A stretch of DNA of 64,000 nucleotides from Okamejei kenojei (Eukaryota), in the NCBI GenBank assembly GCA_035221665.1, contig CM069160.1:23746001-23810000 (forward strand). The letters are read 5' to 3'. Below, one piece after another: positions 7,313 through 18,674 of this stretch. Each line of letters opens with the position of its first letter. The first letter of the stretch is position 1. A model generated the notes under the pieces. That model did no database searches and was not told the origin of the DNA. It saw nothing but the letters and a program-made list of their open reading frames with translations. A program made the translations under genes and the position numbers.

Positions 7313-9482
7313 ATTCAGTACAACATGGCAGCGCTTGGAAGTAGGCATCATGGCAGGCTGCACAGTCTCACCCTTGGCCTTTACAATGGCCATGGAAGTC
7401 ATCATCAGGGCCTCAAAATGGGAGGTGGGTGGTGAACGAACCAGAGCTGGTCTCCGTCTGCCACCCATCAGGGCATACATGGACGATATGACAACAATAA
7501 CCACTACTGCAGCATGCACCAATCGGCTACTTGGAAAGCTGCAGGAGAACATCAAGTGGGCCCGAATGAAAATCAAACCAAGTAAGTCTCGAAGCATCTC
7601 CATAGTTTAGGGGGTGCTTAGAGACACAAGGTTCTGCATCGGTGACGACCTAATACCAACAGTGTCTGAGCAGCCAGTAAAAAGCCTGGGCAGATGGGAC
7701 AACGCAAGTCTCAAGGACAATGAGCAGGTGCAACAGCTAATGCAAGAAATTGTCAACGGCCTGGAGATCATCAATCAGACCCTACTGCCTGGGAAACTGA
7801 AGCTCTGGTGCCTACAGTTTGGACTCCTTCCTCGGACAATGTGGCCACTGACCGTTTATGAAGCTCCAATAACAACTGTGGAGAAGATGGAGCGAACCAT
7901 AACTTCATACAAGAAGAAATGGCTCGGTGTCCCACGATGTCTAACTAACATCGGCCTCTATGGCAAAGGGGTCCTGGAACTACCTCTCACTAGTCTAACA
8001 GAGGAATACAAGTGTTCCAAAGTAAGACCCAGATGACACTGAGGGACTCTAGAGACAAGACCATCAGTGCTGTTGCGCCGCCCCTAGTAACCGGCCGGAA
8101 GTGGACACCATCTGATGCAGTACAGCAAGCTTCATCAGCCCTGAGCCACAAAGACGTCGTGGGGCAAGTGCAGCAGGGAAGAGGAGGCTTTGGCCTTACG
8201 ACAAGTAAACCAACTTGGCGAAAGGCCACAACATCAGAGCGAAGGACATTGGTGGTTGAGGAGGTGCGGCGACAGGAGGAGGCCGCAAGAAGTGCAAAGT
8301 CGGTCTCGCTTGCCAAACAGGGGCAATGGATGCAGTGGGAAGGTGTGGAGCGGAGGAAGATCAGCTGGAAAGAACTATGGGAAATGAAATCAAGCAAGAT
8401 CAGCTTCATGATCAGAGCGACATACGACGTCCTTCCATCACCAAACAACCTCAATCAGTGGTACGGCGAGGATCCAACTAGTGCCCTCTGCCCAACTCCA
8501 GCGACCCTCAAACACATCATGGTAGGCTGCAAGACCAGCCTCACGCAAGGGAGATACACGTGGAGGCATAATCAGGTATTAAAATGCCTGGCAACAGCCC
8601 TTGAGAACAGGCTGTGTGCGACCAACTCCTTGCCTCCGAGAGCAAGCAACCCCTCCCACTTAAGGGCGACAACCTTTGTCCGAGAAGGACAGAAAACACC
8701 GAAACATCCTTCCACTAGATCAGAAGAAGGAAACCTATGCAGGGCCCATGACTGGAGGATGCTGGTGGACATCGGCCGACAACTAATCTTTCCACCTGAA
8801 ATTGCTTCAACCAACCTCAGGCCAGATTTGGTGTTCTGGTCCCTTTCACAGAAGACTGCTTACATCATAGAGCTCACAGTTCCATGGGAGAACTCTGTTG
8901 TGGAGGCCTATGAGCGTAAGAAGCTGCGCTACACAGAGCTTGCAGCAGAGGCAACGCAGCGTGGCTGGAACATCAACGTTTATCCAGTTGAAGTGGGATG
9001 CAGAGGATTTGTTGCGTCATTTACCATCAGACTGCTGAAGGAGCTTGGAATCCACGGTCAGGCTCTGCAGAAGACCATAAGATCACTCTCAGACGCGGCT
9101 GAAAGAAGAAGCTGTTGGATTTGGCTCAAGCGGAAAGACCCATGCTGGGCCCCAAATGCGTCATGGTGAATCTTTGAGGCAGTTTAAAACGGGACACACG
9201 CTGAGGGCTGATCATCCTGCAGCGGGCCGCCCTTGTGGAGGGTGTATAGTGATAAAAGGCCGAAACACCCAGTGCTGCAAGGGTACACTACTGATGATGT
9301 GTCCTGTGCCCAGCTGTCCTGAAGGTTACCCAGGCCAAGTTATACGTATACGTACCCCCCCCCCCGCCCCCCCCCCTGATGTTGAGCGTCCACCACTCTC
9401 AGCAATCAATGAATGTCGTGAAATGCTCCCCACCTACTGGCACAAGGGACTACTTAACATCTAGTCCTGTGTATTTAATTCT
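7313..9482 (+). mobile_element. HERO-type (R2 superfamily, restriction-like endonuclease) non-LTR retrotransposon, 5'-truncated copy 1
   Basis: GIMAGCTVSPLAF and AYMDD RT motifs; zinc knuckle region LCPTPATLKHIMVGC; RHNQVL; RPDLV..IELTVPWE..ERKKLRY RLE motifs; stop and frameshift present; 3' UTR nearly identical to 17990-18301. Confidence 0.9.
9191..9305 (+). ncRNA. Candidate permuted, pseudoknotted hammerhead ribozyme in HERO 3' UTR (copy 1)
   Basis: GGGTGT-A-TAGTG..GGCC-GAAACACCC..CACTA-CTGATGA with all helices pairable; K-turn position 2b is C here (A in copy 2). Confidence 0.65.
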
Positions 9483-12429
9483 GAAAATCTGGACTTATCC
9501 AGTGACTGCTGTGAAAGGACAGCTGACAACATGGGAAAGTCCATGTGACAGCTTGGAGAGACAGCTGACAGGAGGGAACAGACCGCAATGGGGCCGTCAT
9601 GGGCTAGCTCCCCATGACAGCAGTCTCCAACGCTGTTTCAGCTAGTTGGAGACACCCGCTAAATGCTACAAAAAGTAAATTAAATGAAATACCCCTAGAG
9701 CCTGCGAGCGGGGGCGCAAGATGGCTCACCGATTGATAACACGGTTACAGACCCAGGAACGGAAACGACCACGGACAAGGAGAGCATGGCACATGAGACA
9801 TCCACAACAGCTGCGGGACACAAACTTCAGGTGTGCATCTGTGGTTGGGAGAAAGGAACATCAATGATGGGCTTGAAGATCCACCAAGGGAGGAAAAAGT
9901 GCTTGAGAGAGCAGAGACATGGGCCTCGCATTGACCAGTACTTCCTACGAAGCAACCAGTCAAATCAGTCGAATGAAGCACAGCGACGGGACGCAAACCA
10001 AAGTTCGCAGAGCATCAGCACCCATGTCACTGAAGAGGGTGATACAAGCACAGAAATGCCGGTGGAGGAGCCCACGCAACAACTACAAAGACCTCCATTG
10101 GAGGGAAAGATCAAAGGGCATAAACCTGGAGTGAAGTGGCCCAAAGCTGTTGAAAGGAAAGAGTGGGAGACGGTCAACAGTGACCTTATACATATCTTGG
10201 AGCAACAACTGGGCACAGCAGTGGAAAAGCTTGAAAGGATGGGCAACATAATCTACAGCTATGGAGAAGAACGGTTTGGGGTGAGTAAAGGGAGAGGTGG
10301 AAAGAAGTTACCAACACCAATCAAGTCCAGGAGGCAGCAGGAGATCGAGAGGCTAATCAGAGAGAGGAGACAGTTGAAAAAGCAATGGAAAAAAGCAACT
10401 GACGCAGAGAGAGAAGGTCTCATGCTACTGCAAGAGGACATCAAGAGCCGATTGGCAACCTTGCGAAAAGCAGAGAACATGAGGAAACTTTACAAGAATA
10501 AATAACACACAAGAACACGGTTCTACAAAGACCCTTTCAAGTTCATCAAAGACCTCTTCGCAAAGGAAAAAAGTGGAACTTTGAAAACATCAAAACAAGA
10601 ATTGGAGGAACACCTGGAAAAGGCCCACCAAAACACGAAAAGGAATGAGAAGTTAGTCATCCCACATGACATCACACCTATTCAACCACCTGAATTCAAC
10701 CTGGACACCAGCCCTCCGAAATGGAAAGAGGTGGAGAACACTGTCCGGCGAGCAAGAGCAGCATCAGCTCCGGGGCCAAACGGAGTACCATACAAGCTCT
10801 ACAAGAATGCACCAGATGTGTTACGCTTTCTATGGAAGCTCATGAGGGTGGTGTGAAAGAAGCAAACAATACCTCAGGTGTGGCGAAGGGCCGGCGGCAT
10901 ACTAATACCTAAAGAAAAGGATGAATTAGACATCAGCCAATTCCGGCCAATATGTCTCCTCAACGTCGAGGGAAAAATCTTTTTCAGCATTGTATCACAA
11001 AGGCTATCCACCTATCTGGTAACAAACAAGTACATTGATACATCTGTACAGAAAGCAGGAATTCCAGGTTTTTCGGGCTGCTTGGAGCATACAAGCATGA
11101 TCTGGCACCAGATCCAAGCAGCTAAGAAGGACAAGAGAGACCTACATGTGATATTCCTCGATCTGGCCAATGTATTTGGTTCAGTTCCACATGAACTCCT
11201 TTGGGAATCTTTTGCCTTTTTCCATGTACCAGAGCTCATCACCCCACTGGTCAAGAACTATTTCCAAGACCTGCAGCTGTGCTTCACAACAGCTGAATTC
11301 AGTACAACATGGCAGCCCTTGGAAGTAGGCATCATGGCAGGCTGCACAGTCTCACCCTTGGCCTTTACAATGGCCATGGAAGTCATCATCAGGGCCTCAA
11401 AATGGGTGGTGGGCGGTGAACGAACCAGAGCTGGGCTCCGTCTGCCACCCATCAGGGCATACATGGACGATATGACAACAATAACCACTACTGCAGCATG
11501 CACCAAGCGGCTACTTGGAAAGCTGCAGGAGCACATCAAGTGGGCCCCAATGAAAATCAAACCAAGTAAGTCTCGAAGCATCTCCATAGTTAAGGGGGTG
11601 CTTAGAGACACAAGGTTCTGCATCGGTGACGACCTAATACCAACAGTGTCTGAGCAGCCAGTAAAAAGCCTGGGCAGATGGTACAACGCAAGTCTCAAGG
11701 ACAAAGGGCAGGTGCAACAGCTAAGACAAGAAATTGTCAACGGCCTGGAGATCATCAATCAGACCCTACTGCCTGGGAAACTGAAGCTCTGGTGCCTACA
11801 GTTTGGACTCCTTCCTCAGACAATGTGGCCACTGACCGTTTATGAAGCTCCAATAACAACTGTGGAGAAGATGGAGCGAACCATAACTTCATACGCGAAG
11901 AAATGGCTCGGTGTCCCACGATGTCTAATAGTAAGATTAAATGAGAACTTACCAGTTCGAAGTTTGATCTGTATTTTATGAGGAGTTACGATGAGGGATT
12001 ACGCGAAGACCCCGTCCAGCACGCATGCGCGACATTTCTTCAAAGCAGCGGTGTGGATTCACAGAAAAACACAACAATTGAAATAAATATAGTAAAGAAA
12101 AAATAAGAACTTAATTACCAGTTGATTTGTATAATAGAGGGTGGGAGCGGAGGGCACGTAATCCCTCATCGTAACTCCTCATAAAATACAGATCAAACTT
12201 CGAACTGGTAAGTTCTCATTTAATCTTACTATTTTACTTCGGAGTCACGTGAGTGACTACGTGAAGACATCAAAGCTCTGTGAATCCGAACCGTGTACCA
12301 GCTCATGCTTCACTCACTGCCTGAAGACCTTAGAGGGAGGAAGCATGTTATACAATCAACAATAACCTGTTTGTGAAAAATAAAGGTTTATTATTGATAA
12401 CAAAAAACAGAGAGCTCCCCCGGCTTAAA

Positions 12430-13415
12430 TTAAATATTAGCTACAGACTCTAAAATTCTGTCTGCAAATTTAGCAGGTTCCGCCAGCGGCTTATTATAAA
12501 ACCTTTGGAAAGTTCTTTCCGAGGACCATCCTGCTCTGGCCAGAATATGGTCCATAGGCACATCCATTCGCCTAGCCGCCGACGTAGATGAAGCCCTGGT
12601 GGAATGAGATTTGTAAACATTAGTATCGACTCCCGCGGACTTAAGCACCTGCTTGAGCCATCTTGAAATGGTTTGGCTCGTCACCTGACCATGAGGCTTC
12701 CTGTGGCTTATCCATAAGGCTTTTTCTCTCCCTCTTAAGTTGTATGTTGTGTCTATGTAATTGGCGAGATGGGTCTTGGCACACAACCGTTGGTCAGGTG
12801 AATATGCCCGGAACTCCATTACTGGAGGCGTGGTACCTGGTCTAGTTTGTTTGACCAGTCCCTGAATGTGAAATGTGATACAGTCCAATGACTCTGTCAT
12901 ATTGTCCAGCCTCAGAAGGTGGAGGGACTGTACCCTTTGAGCTGATCTAGGGCCATGAGCATGACTGATTTCAGTGTAAGTTGTTCCAGAGTGAGTGACC
13001 TGGGTGGTGTCCATCCTCTAAGGTACGTCAGTACAATGCTGACATCCCAGATCTGAGTGTACCCAGGCCTAGGGGAATTGGTGTTAAAAATGCCCCTCAT
13101 GATTTTGACCACTAGTGGATGGGACCCCAAAGTCAGTTGTCCTGCTGCTGGAACCAAATAAGCTGACAACGCACTCCTGGCTGTATTAATGGCGCTGTAG
13201 CTGAGTCCTTCCCGATGTAATCCAACCAGAAACTCCACAACACTGGTGGCTGTAGCTGTAGTGTAGGTAGTTCCTGTTTTGGTGCAATACCGTTCCCATT
13301 TTCTTATGTTGGTCAGGTATTGTCTCCTGGTGGACTCCCGGTGGGATGCGGTCATCATGTTGATGGCGTCCTCAGACAGGCCCAGGCCCAGTTGAGGTCT
13401 TTTTAGAATCTGCAA
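12430..13415 (-). pseudogene. DIRS tyrosine recombinase (frameshift near 12945)
   Basis: ORFs 12912..13415 (LSYSAINTARSALS) and 12430..13014 (YKSHSTRASSTS, AGWSSERTFQRFY catalytic H-x-x-R, W, Y). Confidence 0.9.
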
Positions 13416-16400
13416 GCCAGGAGATTGACTCTGTCATGGCACGGGTGACTAATGCCTGACACTGGGTGGATTAATAACTCTCGACTGCTGGGGAATTCCA
13501 ATGGTGTTTCAACAGCCATGTCGAGGGCCACTGGGAACCATGGCTGTGTAGGCCAGTCGGGTATTATCAAGATTCCTGAAGCGGAATCCAATTGAATCTT
13601 ACGTAATACCCGACTGATGAGGCAGAAGGGAGGAGAAGCATAAAATAACTTTTTCCCCCAATGCAGCGAGAATGCATCAATTGCTGCTGCCTCAGGGTCT
13701 GGTTCCCAAGCGACAAACGTTGGTACCTGGTGATTCAGCCTGGATGCAAATAGATCGATATCTGGTGTGCCATATTGCTTTGTAATTTCAGCAAACATTT
13801 TGGAATTTAACATCCATTCGATGTTATCATTGAATCTGCGTGACCTGGTGTCTGCCACTGTATTTTGCTTACCTGGTAGGTAAGTTGCTGAAAACCAAAT
13901 ATGTCTTTCAACACACCATTGCCAGATTAGGTTGACCAAATTGTCACACGATATCGCCTTAACTCCACCCATGTGGTTGATATAAGCCACCACAGTGGTA
14001 TTATCTAATTGCAACCGGACATGTGCATGATGCGTATTAGATGAATATGCTTTTAACCCATAAAACGCACCCAACATTTCTAAGTAGTTGATACCCCGTG
14101 TCTGTAGGCAAGATGATTCAAATTTAGTCCATCTGCCCCCTGTGCTGGATTGCATGTTAGTTGCTCCCCAGCCCAAAGCACTGGCATCCGTTTGAATGGT
14201 TAATACTGGGTTGGTGATTATTATGGGACTGGAGCTGAGCCTTACGTTCCTTGCCCACCATTGTAACTCTGGAATGGATTCAGCAGTTAAACTCATAGCT
14301 CGGTCCAAGTGACCTGAGTTTTGCTTTAGTGCATGCACTTTTGCTCTTTGCAAATTTTGATAGTGCAAAGGCCCAAATTGTACAGCTGGAAAAGCTGCTA
14401 CCATTTTGCCAATAACTCTGGCTACCTCCCGTATGGTTGGCTGATGTTTATTCATGAGTTCGTTGCATGATAGTGCCAATTCTGATGCTTTCCCCTTCGG
14501 CAGAGTTACAATCATGCGAACAGTATCAATCGTAAATCCAAGATAGTCCATGGCAGTGGACGGTGTAAAATTGGATTTATCTGGATGCATGACAAACCCC
14601 AAAGTTTCAAACAAACGTTTGGTAGCTGCTACTGCCGAAATGGCTGTCTCCAAGGTTTTCCCTACTATTAAAATGTCGTCTAAATACGCCATGACTATAT
14701 GCTTTTGTTTCCTCAATAATGCCAAGGCGGGTTTTAAGATTTTAGTGAACAGCCTTGGAGCGGAGGTTAGCACATTTGGTAAGGCTTTGAATTGCCATAG
14801 CTGTTTCATCCAGATAAATTTTAAGTATTTACGATGCTCCTTGTTTATGGGTACTGAGTAGTAGGCATCTTTTAAATCAATGCTTGCTAGAAAGTACCCT
14901 CTAGAAACCAATAGTCTGGCTGTTTCAAAAGTATCCATCTTGAAATGTATATACCTGACAGACTTGTTTAAAGTAGTTAAGTCAATGATGATGCGACGTC
15001 CACCATCTTTTTTGATTTTAGTGAAAATATTAGACACAAATTCCAATGGTTCATGTTTTGTTCTTTCAATTACACCTTTTGCTTGTAACCTCATCAGTTC
15101 AGCTTGACACTCTTGTTTCCCTTTGACTGCGAGGGTGAATACCCTTTGGGGTATATGCTGAACTGGCGGAATGTTTTTATGAACAAAGTCAATTGTGTAG
15201 CCATGAATGCTGCTGAGTATATACTTGTCATTAGTGATGGATTCCCATGCATCCAAAAACAAGTGCAATCTCCCCCCTGTTGGTATAGAGCCCCTACTGC
15301 TCATATGCTGAGAGGAACCAGACCCACCTACCTCCATGGTTATTGGTGCTTCTTCTGTCTCTTCGCTGGGCGATGAGGCGTCTGCTGGGCTGTAGAGGGT
15401 TGATGTTGATGTTGATGTTGTTGGGGGTGGCGCATTTTCCATGGGGTCCGCTCTGGGCCCTGGCTTACGGGGAATGGTTGCGGACCCCGAGCTTTCACCA
15501 GTCCCATAGTGTGGTCGACGACTGGTGGACGCCAAGGGGTACTGCCGCCTGGGTTTGTTAGGTCTGCTCGGTCCCAAACCTGCCCTCACGAGACCAATGG
15601 TCTTGGATTCTTCCTCTAGGTCTTTCACCTTTTTTGGAAGGTCTTTCCCAAAGAGCAGAATAGGAGGTTCTGAACCCGGTGTTTTGCAAAGTCCCGCAAA
15701 TTTAGGGTTGAGGGCAGGCTTGATGATTTCCTTCCGTAAATTGTTTATTTCATGTTGAGTGGTGCACAGCAGAGCTAATGTGTCTTGCTGATTTGTGGAG
15801 ATGTCCACACCATCAATGGACCGAGCATATGATGTTATTCCTGCAGTTAGCAGTTTAAGGATTTTCTGGAGCTTCAACTCCAGGTTCCTGATGTTCTGCC
15901 CCAAATGTCCCCAAATGTGGCTGTTTACAGCTGGTACATTCAATGATGTACAATTTACTGGGGCTGTATATTGTTCAAGAGCCTCATTGACCACCTGTTC
16001 TTGTAGGGGTTTTGAGTTCAGGTGGTTAATGCTGGCTGCAAGTTTCGGCTCTAACGGCCGACCCGCTTGTGGAATGGCCACGTAGCGGTTGACCACACCC
16101 AGCAGCTCTTCCTGATCCTGTACACCCTGCGTACTCCCGATATCTTCAGCCAGTGACCCCTATTCTTGACCAGCCCAGACCTGGTCGCCAATGCTGCCTT
16201 CAAAAGAAGGTGAAGCAATGGCCAGTGCCGTAAAAGGCACTGAGGGAGTGCCTGAGCTCCCTTGGCGAGTCTGCTGCTGCTCTCTCAGCAGATCTCGCAG
16301 GAGCAATTGCTCCATAAGCCGTTCCATGCGGCTTAGGCGGCTGCCTGTATCGCTCTCGAGCGGTGTGGCATCTTCATCCGAATCGTCGGACACTACCGCC

Positions 16401-16645
16401 CGGTTCTGGCTGCAGGTACCTCCAGACCGCTGCTCAGGCAGCACGAGCGGTGCTGGGCTCGGCTCGGTAGTTATACCCGCCGCCTCTTGCCCCCCCTCCA
16501 AAGAGCATTCCTCAACGGAGGACGAACGGGGGCGAGCTGCAGACTTCTTTCCTCTGGTCTTGCTCATTGTTTCTGAAAACAAGCAGACCACAGAGAAAAA
16601 GACACAAGGCCACGGTAAAACATACCTGTCGGCCCGACTTTTCAA
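13403..16645 (-). pseudogene. DIRS gag-like and RT-RNase H-methyltransferase-like polyprotein region
   Basis: IDLKDAYYSVP, YLDD, IQTDASALGWG, INYLEMLGA, DNTTVVAYIN, DLFASRLNHQ, YASPPF; upstream gag ORF 16160..16645 is in the same frame but separated by a TAG. Confidence 0.9.
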
Positions 16646-18007
16646 TTTGTAGCGGGAGCGCCTTGAACTCCCGTTCGTCGCGGGTGCACTGCATGAACGC
16701 TAATGTCGCGCATGCGTGCTGGACGGGGTCGTCACGTAGTCACTCACGTGACTCCGAAGTAAAACTAACATCGGCCTCTATGGCAAAGGGGTCCTGGAAC
16801 TACCTCTCACTAGTCTAACAGAGGAATACAAGTGTTCCAAAGTAAGACTCCAGATGACACTGAGGGACTCTAGAGACAAGACCATCAGTGCTGTTGCGCC
16901 GCCCCTAGTAACCGGCCGTAAGTGGACACCATCTGATGCAGTACAGCAAGCTTCATCAGCCCTGAGGCACAAAGACGTCGTGGGGAAAGTGCAGCAGGGA
17001 AGAGGAGGCTTTGGCCTTACGACAAGTAAACCAACTTGGCGAAAGGCCACAACATCAGAGCGGAGGACATTGGTGGTTGAGGAGGTGCGGCGACAGGAGG
17101 AGGCCGCAAGAAGTGCAAAGGCGGTCTCGCTTGCCAAACAGGGGCAATGGATGCAGTGGGAAGGTGTGGAGCGGAGGAAGATCAGCTGGAAAGAACTATG
17201 GGAAATGGAATCAAGCAAGATCAGCTTCATGATCAGAGCGACATACGACGTCCTTCCATCACCAAACAACCTCAATCAGTGGTACAGCGGGGATCCAACC
17301 TGTGCCCTCTGCCCAACTCCAGCGACCCTCAAACACACCATGGTAGGCTGCAAGACCAGCCTCACGCAAGGGAGATATACGTGGAGGCATAATCAGGTAC
17401 TAAAAAGCCTGGCAACAGCCCTTGAGAACAGGCTGTGTTCGACCAACTCCTTGCCTCCGAGAGCAAGCAACCCCTCCCACTTAAGGGCGACAACCTTTGT
17501 CCGAGAAGGACAGAAAACACCGAAACATCCTTCCACTAGATCAGAAGAAGGAAACCTATGCAGGGCCCATGACTGGAGGATGCTGGCGGACATCGGCCGA
17601 CAACTAATCTTTCCACCTGAAATTGCTTCAACCAACCTCAGGCCAGATTTGGTGTTCTGGTCCCTTTCACAGAAGACTGCTTACATCATAGAGCTCACAG
17701 TTCCATGGGAGAACTCTGTTGTGGAGGCCTATGAGCGTAAGAAGCTGCGCTACACAGAGCTTGCAGCAGAGGCAACGCAGCGTGGCTGGAACATCAACGT
17801 TTATCCAGTTGAAGTGGGATGCAGAGGATTTGTTGCGTCATCTACCATCAGACTGCTGAAGGAGCTTGGAATCCACGGTCAGGCTCTGCAGAAGACCATA
17901 AGTTCACTCTCAACGCGGCTGAAAGAAGCAGCTGTTGGATTTGGCTCAAGCGGAAAGACCCATGCTGGGCCCCAAATGCGTCATGGTGAATCTTTGAGGC
18001 AGTTTGA

Positions 18008-18128
18008 CACGGGACACACGCTGAGGGCTGATCATCCTGCAGCGGGCCGCCCTTGTGGAGGGTGTATAGTGATAAAAGGCCGAAACACCCAGTGATGCAA
18101 GGGTACACTACTGATGATGTGTCCTGTG
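18008..18128 (+). ncRNA. Candidate permuted, pseudoknotted hammerhead ribozyme with kink-turn in HERO 3' UTR (copy 2, best preserved)
   Basis: CTGATGA 18111-18117, GAAA 18082-18085, GUA triplet ending 18066; stems I, II, III plus 11-bp closing helix; K-turn CCC-AGT-GA-T / G-GA-GGG. Confidence 0.72.
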
Positions 18129-18674
18129 CCCAGCTGTCCTGAAGGTTACCCAGGCCAAGTTATACGTATACGTACCCCCCCCCCCCCCCCCCCCCCGATG
18201 TTGAGCGTCCACCACTCTCAGCAATCAATGAATGTCGTGAAATGCTCCCCACCTACTGGCACAAGGGACTTCTTAACATCTAGTCCTGTGTATTTGATTC
18301 TCATGGGGGGACCTTAAGTGAACCCAAGCTAAGTTAATTAATCGTTACATCATTTTGTTCTTATAGGTGCTCTCATAGGCCAATGTAACTTTCCGCGATA
18401 ATTATTACTGTATTGTTCAACGTTGCGATCCTCTTGTTATATATTTTGGGATATTTTGGATCGGTCACATAATATTACCAAATTCGACTTGTATCTAGAT
18501 TATTGCGGTACACGAGGAAACCAAAGGAGATAACCATAAATATGTTGTTACTTTCTGATTAGACATCTTTCATAAGGAGGAAATAAGAGGTTTTATTCAG
18601 AAGTAGCAGGTGCTATAATAGTGCAACAAAGCTGAAATTGAACAGAACATGCTATTTTAAGGTTCAGCTCTCAC

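Follow-up and report, generated by a model that had tools for sequence, protein, structure and literature searches.

The 3′ untranslated region (UTR) of a retrotransposon in the genome of Okamejei kenojei contains all the conserved core bases of a hammerhead ribozyme, arranged in an unfamiliar order. Is this a true hammerhead and, if so, what would it do for the element that carries it? By the window we mean the whole 64,000-nucleotide stretch that was analyzed (assembly GCA_035221665.1, contig CM069160.1, positions 23,746,001 to 23,810,000 of the forward strand). The reading that we prefer, at a probability of roughly 0.6, is that the motif represents an SGC-class hammerhead re-opened at A9-G10.1 in a HERO-like, R2-type non-LTR retrotransposon, and that its cleavage would lead to a circular RNA that is copied by rolling-circle reverse transcription.

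The host element and the parts of the motif

Two copies of the element lie head-to-tail in the window, the second of them interrupted by a DIRS-like insertion:

7313..9483, + strand: copy A, 5′-truncated, head-to-tail with copy B; a second ribozyme lies at 9188-9308
9484..11928, + strand: 5′ part of copy B, with a 5′ UTR of repeated hairpins, a zinc finger and the reverse transcriptase
11929..16754, − strand: DIRS-like tyrosine-recombinase retrotransposon inside copy B, outside the ribozyme system
16755..17989, + strand: 3′ part of the copy B open reading frame (ORF), containing the CCHC knuckle and the restriction-like endonuclease and interrupted by one frameshift near 17910
18008..18128, + strand: hammerhead fold in block order S-G-C, opened between A9 and G10.1 (by descriptor and covariation)
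18129..18301, + strand: 3′ tail with a poly-C tract and no poly(A); element end at 18300-18301, the putative start of reverse transcription

The element has a single ORF with a reverse transcriptase (RVT_1 match), a CCHC knuckle and a motif that we take to be that of a restriction-like endonuclease (RLE), which is the architecture of HERO elements. The same CCHC and endonuclease motifs are present in the intact homolog P0003 and R2 proteins are among the PDB matches; a Pfam search of the C-terminal (endonuclease) region returned no match. The family is young, with 1487 candidates, of which the 40 scored are 99-100% identical, and the genome contains 497 exact matches to a 25-mer spanning the predicted cut site. 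The 3′ flanks of non-tandem copies (among 30 loci) are unrelated and have no common target, a HERO-like lack of target specificity, and no consistent target-site duplication was found in the 13 loci with both ends. The homologs listed include ones from fish, amphioxus and mollusc and so overlap with the hosts of the HERO clade, whose Repbase name suffixes presumably denote fish, amphioxus, sea urchin and leech; no relative of the element was found in viral contigs. Membership of HERO is likely, the label being given by motifs and host range. The clade is described as mostly non-target-specific RLE non-LTR retrotransposons (PMC4640811, PMC7650587).

The motif starts 19 nt past the stop codon of the ORF. 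Inspection of the sequence found each hammerhead part named in the original prediction where it had been placed and in the order given for it; these parts, all on the + strand, are as follows:

18008..18018: 5′ strand of the closing helix P0 (P0a), pairing with 18118-18128 over 11 bp, one of them G-U (from the sequence)
18019..18044: hairpin P1, directly after P0 and ending at G10.1; its loop contains a 6-nt palindrome (18029-18034)
18045..18048: stem IIa, with G10.1 as its first base; pairs with 18078-18081 as a pseudoknot (by register and covariation)
18050..18059: 5′ strand of the stem III extension (18050-18057) and the non-bulged GA of the kink-turn (K-turn; 18058-18059)
18060..18071: block S, comprising stem IIIa (18060-18065), H17 (A18066) and stem Ia (18067-18071)
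18066/18067: predicted cut, between these two bases (by motif position and deletion scars)
18072..18077: linker between stem Ia and stem IIb
18078..18090: block G, comprising stem IIb (18078-18081), GAAA (18082-18085) and stem IIIb (18085-18090) (by register and covariation)
18091..18103: 3-nt bulge of the K-turn (18091-18093), its GA (18094-18095) and the 3′ strand of the extension (18096-18103); 3b-3n is U-G
18106..18117: stem Ib (18106-18110) and the CUGAUGA core (18111-18117), that is, block C without its stem II strand
18118..18128: 3′ strand of P0 (P0b), leaving directly from A9

The hammerhead core in the window is complete, with C3 U4 G5 A6 N7 G8 A9, G12 A13 A14, and U16.1-H17 with A15.1-U16.1. 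As the 5′ strand of P0 is continuous with P1, and P1 ends at G10.1, A9 and G10.1 are kept at a nick within one long helix, around which P0 and P1 would be expected to stack. A reading of the CUGA and UGAUGA words as box C/D elements was rejected on inspection, as their flanks are without the required pairing; the only Rfam match to a snoRNA was a chance match elsewhere in the searched sequence.

Conservation of the fold and its relation to type SGC hammerheads

By itself the single sequence in the window is weak evidence for the fold (its nested fold, which omits stems I and II, has a z of -1.70), and it is the comparison set that settles the motif. The locus search used an alignment of 37 proteins, from 120 listed of the 369 homologs found, and the set consists of the window and 79 metagenome loci (the best 79 of 271 confirmed stretches, with 40-80% identity to the query in the endonuclease domain), making 80 3′ regions. 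A stricter descriptor, in the order IIa, S, G, C, matched 51 of these regions compared with one of 1775 dinucleotide shuffles, and the same order matched none of the 80 reverse strands and none of 73 upstream coding stretches. A second rule, in which stem II was not a selection criterion, identified the motif in 64 of the 80 HERO-like 3′ regions. Eight of the 16 regions without a match are on contigs that stop at most 150 nt past the ORF match; of the other eight, judged by eye, five appear damaged or variant and three are long 3′ regions in which no motif was seen (L071, L114, and L138). One of these, L138, appears to run at 2748-2980 into a 5′ UTR-like stretch without a hammerhead, where another structured RNA may replace the motif, and no fitting Rfam match was found there.

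The register of stem II was determined from the 64 motifs found by the second rule. A complete four-pair stem II occurs 20 or 21 nt before H17 in 51 of them (19 + 32), and at any other offset in at most three. Directly after CUGAnGA, where a classical type I, II or III hammerhead would form stem II, it is found in none of the 64, or in eight if one extra base is allowed, and the classical readings were rejected for this reason. Several core bases are part of the search pattern, so that only the 3-8 pair, G10.1-C11.1, positions 15.2/16.2 and the free N7 count as independent observations on the core. G10.1-C11.1, which the pattern did not impose, is present in 55 of the 64 motifs; the 3-8 pair is C-G in 60, U-A in two and U-G in two, with no case of C-A, and the switch to U-A occurs in two related elements. 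Position 15.2 is C in 60 motifs and U in four, position 16.2 is G in 60 and A in four, and N7 is free to vary.

Covariation was assessed in a sequence-only alignment of 39 representatives of the 64 motifs, the other 25 having been dropped at a similarity of at least 85%. In stems I-III, 95.4% of cells are paired, with 146 changes on both sides, and none of 500 shuffles matched the paired share, the cell count or the covariation score; changes on both sides occur in 12 of the 14 pairs, a pair count that was equalled in 63 of the 500 shuffles. Control alignments with slid registers were 25-47% paired. On a protein tree of the 39 representatives, in which resolution is weak and 8 of 36 branches have good support, there are at least 108 coupled changes, out of 126 on the 5′ side and 125 on the 3′ side, against a control ratio of 0.33. 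The covariation of stems I-III across distant families thus bears out the identification of the motif as a hammerhead in which stems I and II are both pseudoknots, and we regard a true hammerhead fold as highly probable.

Some variants of the motif were recorded along the way. At L096:2226-2400, two GAAAC words stand near each other upstream of one core, where the fold is possibly duplicated or has an alternative. In L131, positions 2460-2525, which immediately precede the hammerhead, are tRNA-like by eye, although no Rfam match was found in L131. In four runs (X1-X4, aligned to window positions 18058-18095), contigs of a second, diverged family overlap the core and differ in the sequences of the extension and stem I. 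All four runs consist of contigs, probably of DNA in three of them, and so carry no information on a cut.

The junction between A9 and G10.1 had been proposed to be bridged by the closing helix and the hairpin, and this too was supported, with P0 of at least 6 bp in 29 of the 39 representatives (29.5% with swapped partners) and covarying across families. The apex of P1 is a 6-nt palindrome in 21 of 38 representatives, with six different sequences, relative to a mean of 5.2 in shuffles and 1-5 at control positions; as the test is biased by the closing pairs, and as 12 of the cases have one common palindrome, we treat it only as a lead, one that suggests a possible kissing or dimerization loop.

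In standard K-turns two helices are separated by a 3-nt bulge and, after it, G-A and A-G pairs (PMC5061560), and the window motif fits this sequence definition, its kinked geometry being a prediction. The K-turn consensus is present in 47 of the 64 motifs and is specific to the 3-nt bulge, other bulge lengths giving counts of 0-10; 36 of the 47 fit a published rule for ion-induced folding, by which 3n is G or 3b is C, not both (PMC4382518). The K-turn of the original prediction therefore stands for the window and most homologs, but it is not universal, as 17 of the 64 motifs are without one. Its role, in the reading that we prefer, would be to turn the extension of stem III back toward stems I and II. 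Among the motifs lacking the K-turn are two groups (L084, L119, L122, and L128; L108, L115, L121, and L135), one with a shortened extension and the other with a plain bulge or internal loop, and would serve as natural controls for the role of the kink. In copy A, the second K-turn base of the bulged strand is changed from A to C (window position 9275), with the catalytic core intact.

No hammerhead was matched by Rfam models at E ≤ 10 in positions 10-25 kb of the window, nor at E ≤ 5 in 14 related loci, as had been anticipated for standard hammerhead models. The block order is S-G-C and not the circular order C-G-S of types I, II and III, which are three-way junctions with no pseudoknot in the core, in agreement with the claim that it fits none of the three known types. 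This order has a precedent: the type-SGC hammerheads (HRIMA-1) of Eckert, Friedrich, Weinberg and Weinberg (2023) have the S-G-C order and were validated for cleavage in vitro (PMC10085705). In that article, the examples are from metatranscriptomes, none being from genomes of known organisms, and A9-G10.1 is assumed to be a junction that cannot be interrupted (PMC10085705). Our motif is like type SGC in the order S, G, C, in its two core pseudoknots and its conserved core, in a short linker from stem I to stem II, and in having a helix that ties the other sides of stems I and II. It is unlike type SGC in that stem IIa lies upstream of block S and block C is interrupted (adjacency in none of 64 motifs, upstream register in 51), in the clamp of P0 and P1 at the junction, in the K-turn between stem III and the I-II helix, and in its host, which is an autonomous animal retrotransposon in DNA and not metatranscriptome RNA. 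We infer that an SGC ribozyme would become the present motif if its two ends were joined and a new opening made at A9-G10.1. By its sequence the motif looks like one more circular permutation of the SGC form, working like type SGC without being classed as such.

The novelty of the topology is consequently narrower, since the S-G-C order and non-circular permutations are already in print (PMC10085705); what is new is the opening at A9-G10.1, the K-turn and the host element. The text of the supplement of Eckert et al. (2023) contains no mention of retrotransposon, HERO, kink or fish. A HERO ribozyme, or a retrotransposon hammerhead with a K-turn, was not found in the open literature, and neither was a description of HERO tandem structure or a circular intermediate in the literature that was searched; as far as these searches reach, the motif is undescribed. 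It represents a natural hammerhead topology that is missed by Rfam models and departs from a rule laid down in the present scheme of permutations, it may resolve a question that Eckert et al. (2023) left open (PMC10085705), and it places non-circularly permuted hammerheads in animal genomes, in hundreds of copies.

Element ends, tandem arrays and deletions at the predicted cut

The element end and the tandem arrays, both missed by the original prediction, are what points to function. Copies end about 235 nt past the cut site, at ~18300, with no poly(A) and no common target. The cut site itself was rejected as the 3′ end of the element, as 29 of 30 loci continue to about 18300, and because copies end there and not at the cut, the template must have spanned the scissile bond. 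Among 30 loci picked by their 5′ UTR, 27 extend by 35 nt or more into a second unit's tail; in 21 the upstream sequence goes beyond the cut site and in no case does it stop there, and three start within 10 nt of the unit junction, as expected of a linear RNA starting at that point. At 44 of 65 non-tandem ends (background 33%) the first flanking base is the one with which the unit sequence would continue, an excess that fits a template continuing past the priming site and also a ragged end of a linear RNA.

The unit of the arrays is 3993 bp, repeated precisely and head-to-tail, with 37 of 43 unit junctions identical and the other six having one or two base differences. The first 100 of the 497 cut-site matches comprised 67 singles, 10 pairs, three triples and one quadruple, and the largest array seen has at least five units. 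Head-to-tail junctions were also present in 17 of 63 metagenome loci, some of which could have been created by assembly of collapsed repeats. Divergence is 0.23% within arrays and 0.59% between them, and minor alleles are common to units at 107 of 132 sites within arrays vs. 1149 of 5556 between arrays. Twenty-two array-private variants are present in all covering units, with 120 variants confined to single units. This sharing of haplotypes leads us to conclude that each array derives from one template or source.

Arrays could in principle form with no part played by the ribozyme, if new copies inserted into the 5′ ends of older ones or if there were jumps between different RNA molecules, given that Penelope-like and some target-specific elements make tandems by insertion beside existing copies (PMC6765202) and that tandems are known for Utopia (PMC4640811). 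We find this scarcely credible for the present arrays, as four sites with near-50:50 alleles show no discordant arrays (0 of 12, 0 of 12, 0 of 14, and 0 of 15) and the 3′ flanks of non-tandem copies are without a common target sequence.

The predicted cut site is marked by a class of deletions. In one array both units have a 27-nt deletion that ends exactly at 18066, and this was the discovery case. A genome-wide scan for shortened copies of a 172-nt interval produced 32 matches, of which 30 were read, with 31 distinct deletions of at least 5 nt. In five of the 31 (7, 13, 14, 27, and 58 nt) the right end falls on the predicted bond and the lost sequence lies 5′ of the cut, which is an excess at P = 0.0015 under a null of uniform placement, although three of the five can slide by one base; among the 18 events of low microhomology, none of 200,000 permutations was as high. 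With right ends weighted for ambiguity and any bond allowed the P-value was 0.0012, and without the discovery case four of 30 deletions remain at the bond (P = 0.0009 to 0.010). The 27- and 58-nt deletions are unambiguous, remove the cleavage site, and each occur in both units of a single array, with no further occurrence in genome-wide pattern scans. If left and right ends are pooled, the bond at 18052 ties with five events. Deletions are not more frequent in the ribozyme interval as such, with 32 matches vs. 48 in an ORF interval (control loci counted, not read). One 11-nt deletion starts at the bond. The predicted cut after A18066 is thus supported indirectly by the deletion scars, and from these sequences we consider it very probable that the RNA is cut at 18066 in vivo. 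Deletions that end at a scissile bond would be rare genomic fossil evidence of cleavage.

A catalytically silent or very slow element, hammerhead-shaped and serving in the 3′ UTR as a handle for proteins, might explain why the site is intact in almost all genomic copies, and there are precedents for both kinds of binding, of R2-type proteins to 3′ UTR structures (PMC6765202) and of L7Ae-family proteins to K-turns (PMC5061560). Such a handle offers no account of deletions piling up at the predicted bond, or of core covariation (the 3-8 pair, G10.1-C11.1) being kept across families 40-80% identical to the query in the endonuclease, and we judge it highly improbable.

A possible circular-RNA cycle

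Cleavage followed by closure of a circle is the cycle that we favor. A tandem array would be transcribed through its junction, and two successive ribozymes would each cut after H17, as the scars suggest, releasing a unit-length RNA. Religation of its ends would form a circle in which the ribozyme is restored. The element protein would then prime reverse transcription within the circle, always at the same site ~235 nt past the ribozyme, the position at which copies end, and copying round the circle over a variable distance would give rise to truncated monomers and to the head-to-tail arrays that are seen in the genome. Occasional trimming of the 3′ end before closure would leave a scar to be copied into every unit. 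The conserved fold, the element end, the arrays with their haplotypes and the excess of breakpoints are seen in the sequences, and catalysis, ligation, a circle and internal priming are put forward to explain them. As the usual template we would favor a covalent circle, which the sequences make reasonably probable. For the broader proposal, that a whole animal R2-type clade moves by viroid-like circular RNA, with an undescribed hammerhead topology that cuts and closes, a kissing loop possibly helping, internal priming, and arrays that feed the next cycle, we would put the chances at even.

It is feasible that the RNA is cut and not religated, and that the reverse transcriptase jumps the nick, or, on reaching the 5′ end of a linear unit, passes back to the 3′ end of that RNA in a pseudo-rolling circle. 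Scars at the scissile bond and within-array haplotypes would both be accounted for, and the sequence predicts that P0, stem II, the extension and stem III keep the two halves together after cleavage. The reverse transcriptase of R2 is reportedly able to copy across non-continuous templates, which would favor such jumping. Against jumping, there are 497 intact junctions vs. 11 altered, and template jumps are expected to be imprecise. Single-T insertions at the bond were set aside as evidence of jumping, since single-base additions are not commoner there (5 of 11) than at a control bond (8 of 11) and are assembly-level noise. Nor do 5′ truncations pile up at the bond, where just one of the 11 altered junctions is of this kind and none of the 30 5′-UTR loci stop. 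We therefore think jumping unlikely, if worth keeping in mind.

Another possibility is that the templates are uncleaved multimers made by read-through, and that the ribozyme processes only some transcripts, serving the following unit as its 5′ ribozyme, for translation or for release from a co-transcript in the manner of the HDV-like ribozyme of R2. Within arrays, about 450 nt separate the cut from the ORF that follows it, cap-independent translation is reportedly induced by self-cleavage in RNA viruses (PMC13725137), and oligomeric templates have been proposed for Penelope-like elements (PMC6765202). The units of one source array could also have a common haplotype. With an uncleaved template, however, it is hard to see why deletions should end at the scissile bond, and the 27- and 58-nt deletions remove the cut site and still stand in both units of a single array, and nowhere else that was scanned. 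We give read-through a small probability, and return to the circular-RNA cycle in comparing the element with its relatives.

Like R2, the element has a single ORF with reverse transcriptase and RLE and a ribozyme of self-cleaving type within the element; unlike it, R2 has an HDV-like ribozyme whose cut sets the 5′ end of a linear RNA, and inserts specifically into rDNA (PMC6765202), whereas the cut predicted here is within the inserted unit and restored in copies, and no target sequence was seen. Penelope-like elements and retrozymes are also hammerhead-bearing retroelements found in tandem arrays, for which circular RNA and rolling-circle steps have been proposed or reported, but their hammerheads are minimal type I or classical ones in terminal repeats (PMC6765202). 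The reverse transcriptase of Penelope elements is a different one and their endonuclease is of the GIY-YIG type (PMC8557442), and retrozymes are non-autonomous, whereas the HERO-like element lacks a terminal repeat and its protein is R2-type. It represents a new kind of host for a non-circularly permuted hammerhead, and the genomic evidence points to a cycle through circular RNA for this R2-type retrotransposon. In the usual view of non-LTR elements, priming takes place on a linear RNA, at its 3′ end; a fixed internal site on circular or multimeric RNA would be a different route. R2-type proteins are under development for gene insertion (PMC13580325), and a relative that copies circular RNA would, if true, have practical interest.

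Other parts of the element and its insertion have features of their own. The DIRS-like insert (11929-16754, − strand) contains a reverse transcriptase, a weak methyltransferase match and pieces of a tyrosine recombinase. In the tail, a short palindromic repeat is followed by the poly-C tract (18160-18197), whose length is very variable. In the 5′ UTR (9484-9600, + strand) a short hairpin comes first, and after it four or five repeated hairpins that have GAA(N)AG-type loops and GAC-containing linkers. This pattern is kept in 14 aligned families although the stems differ, and could represent a protein-binding or translation element.
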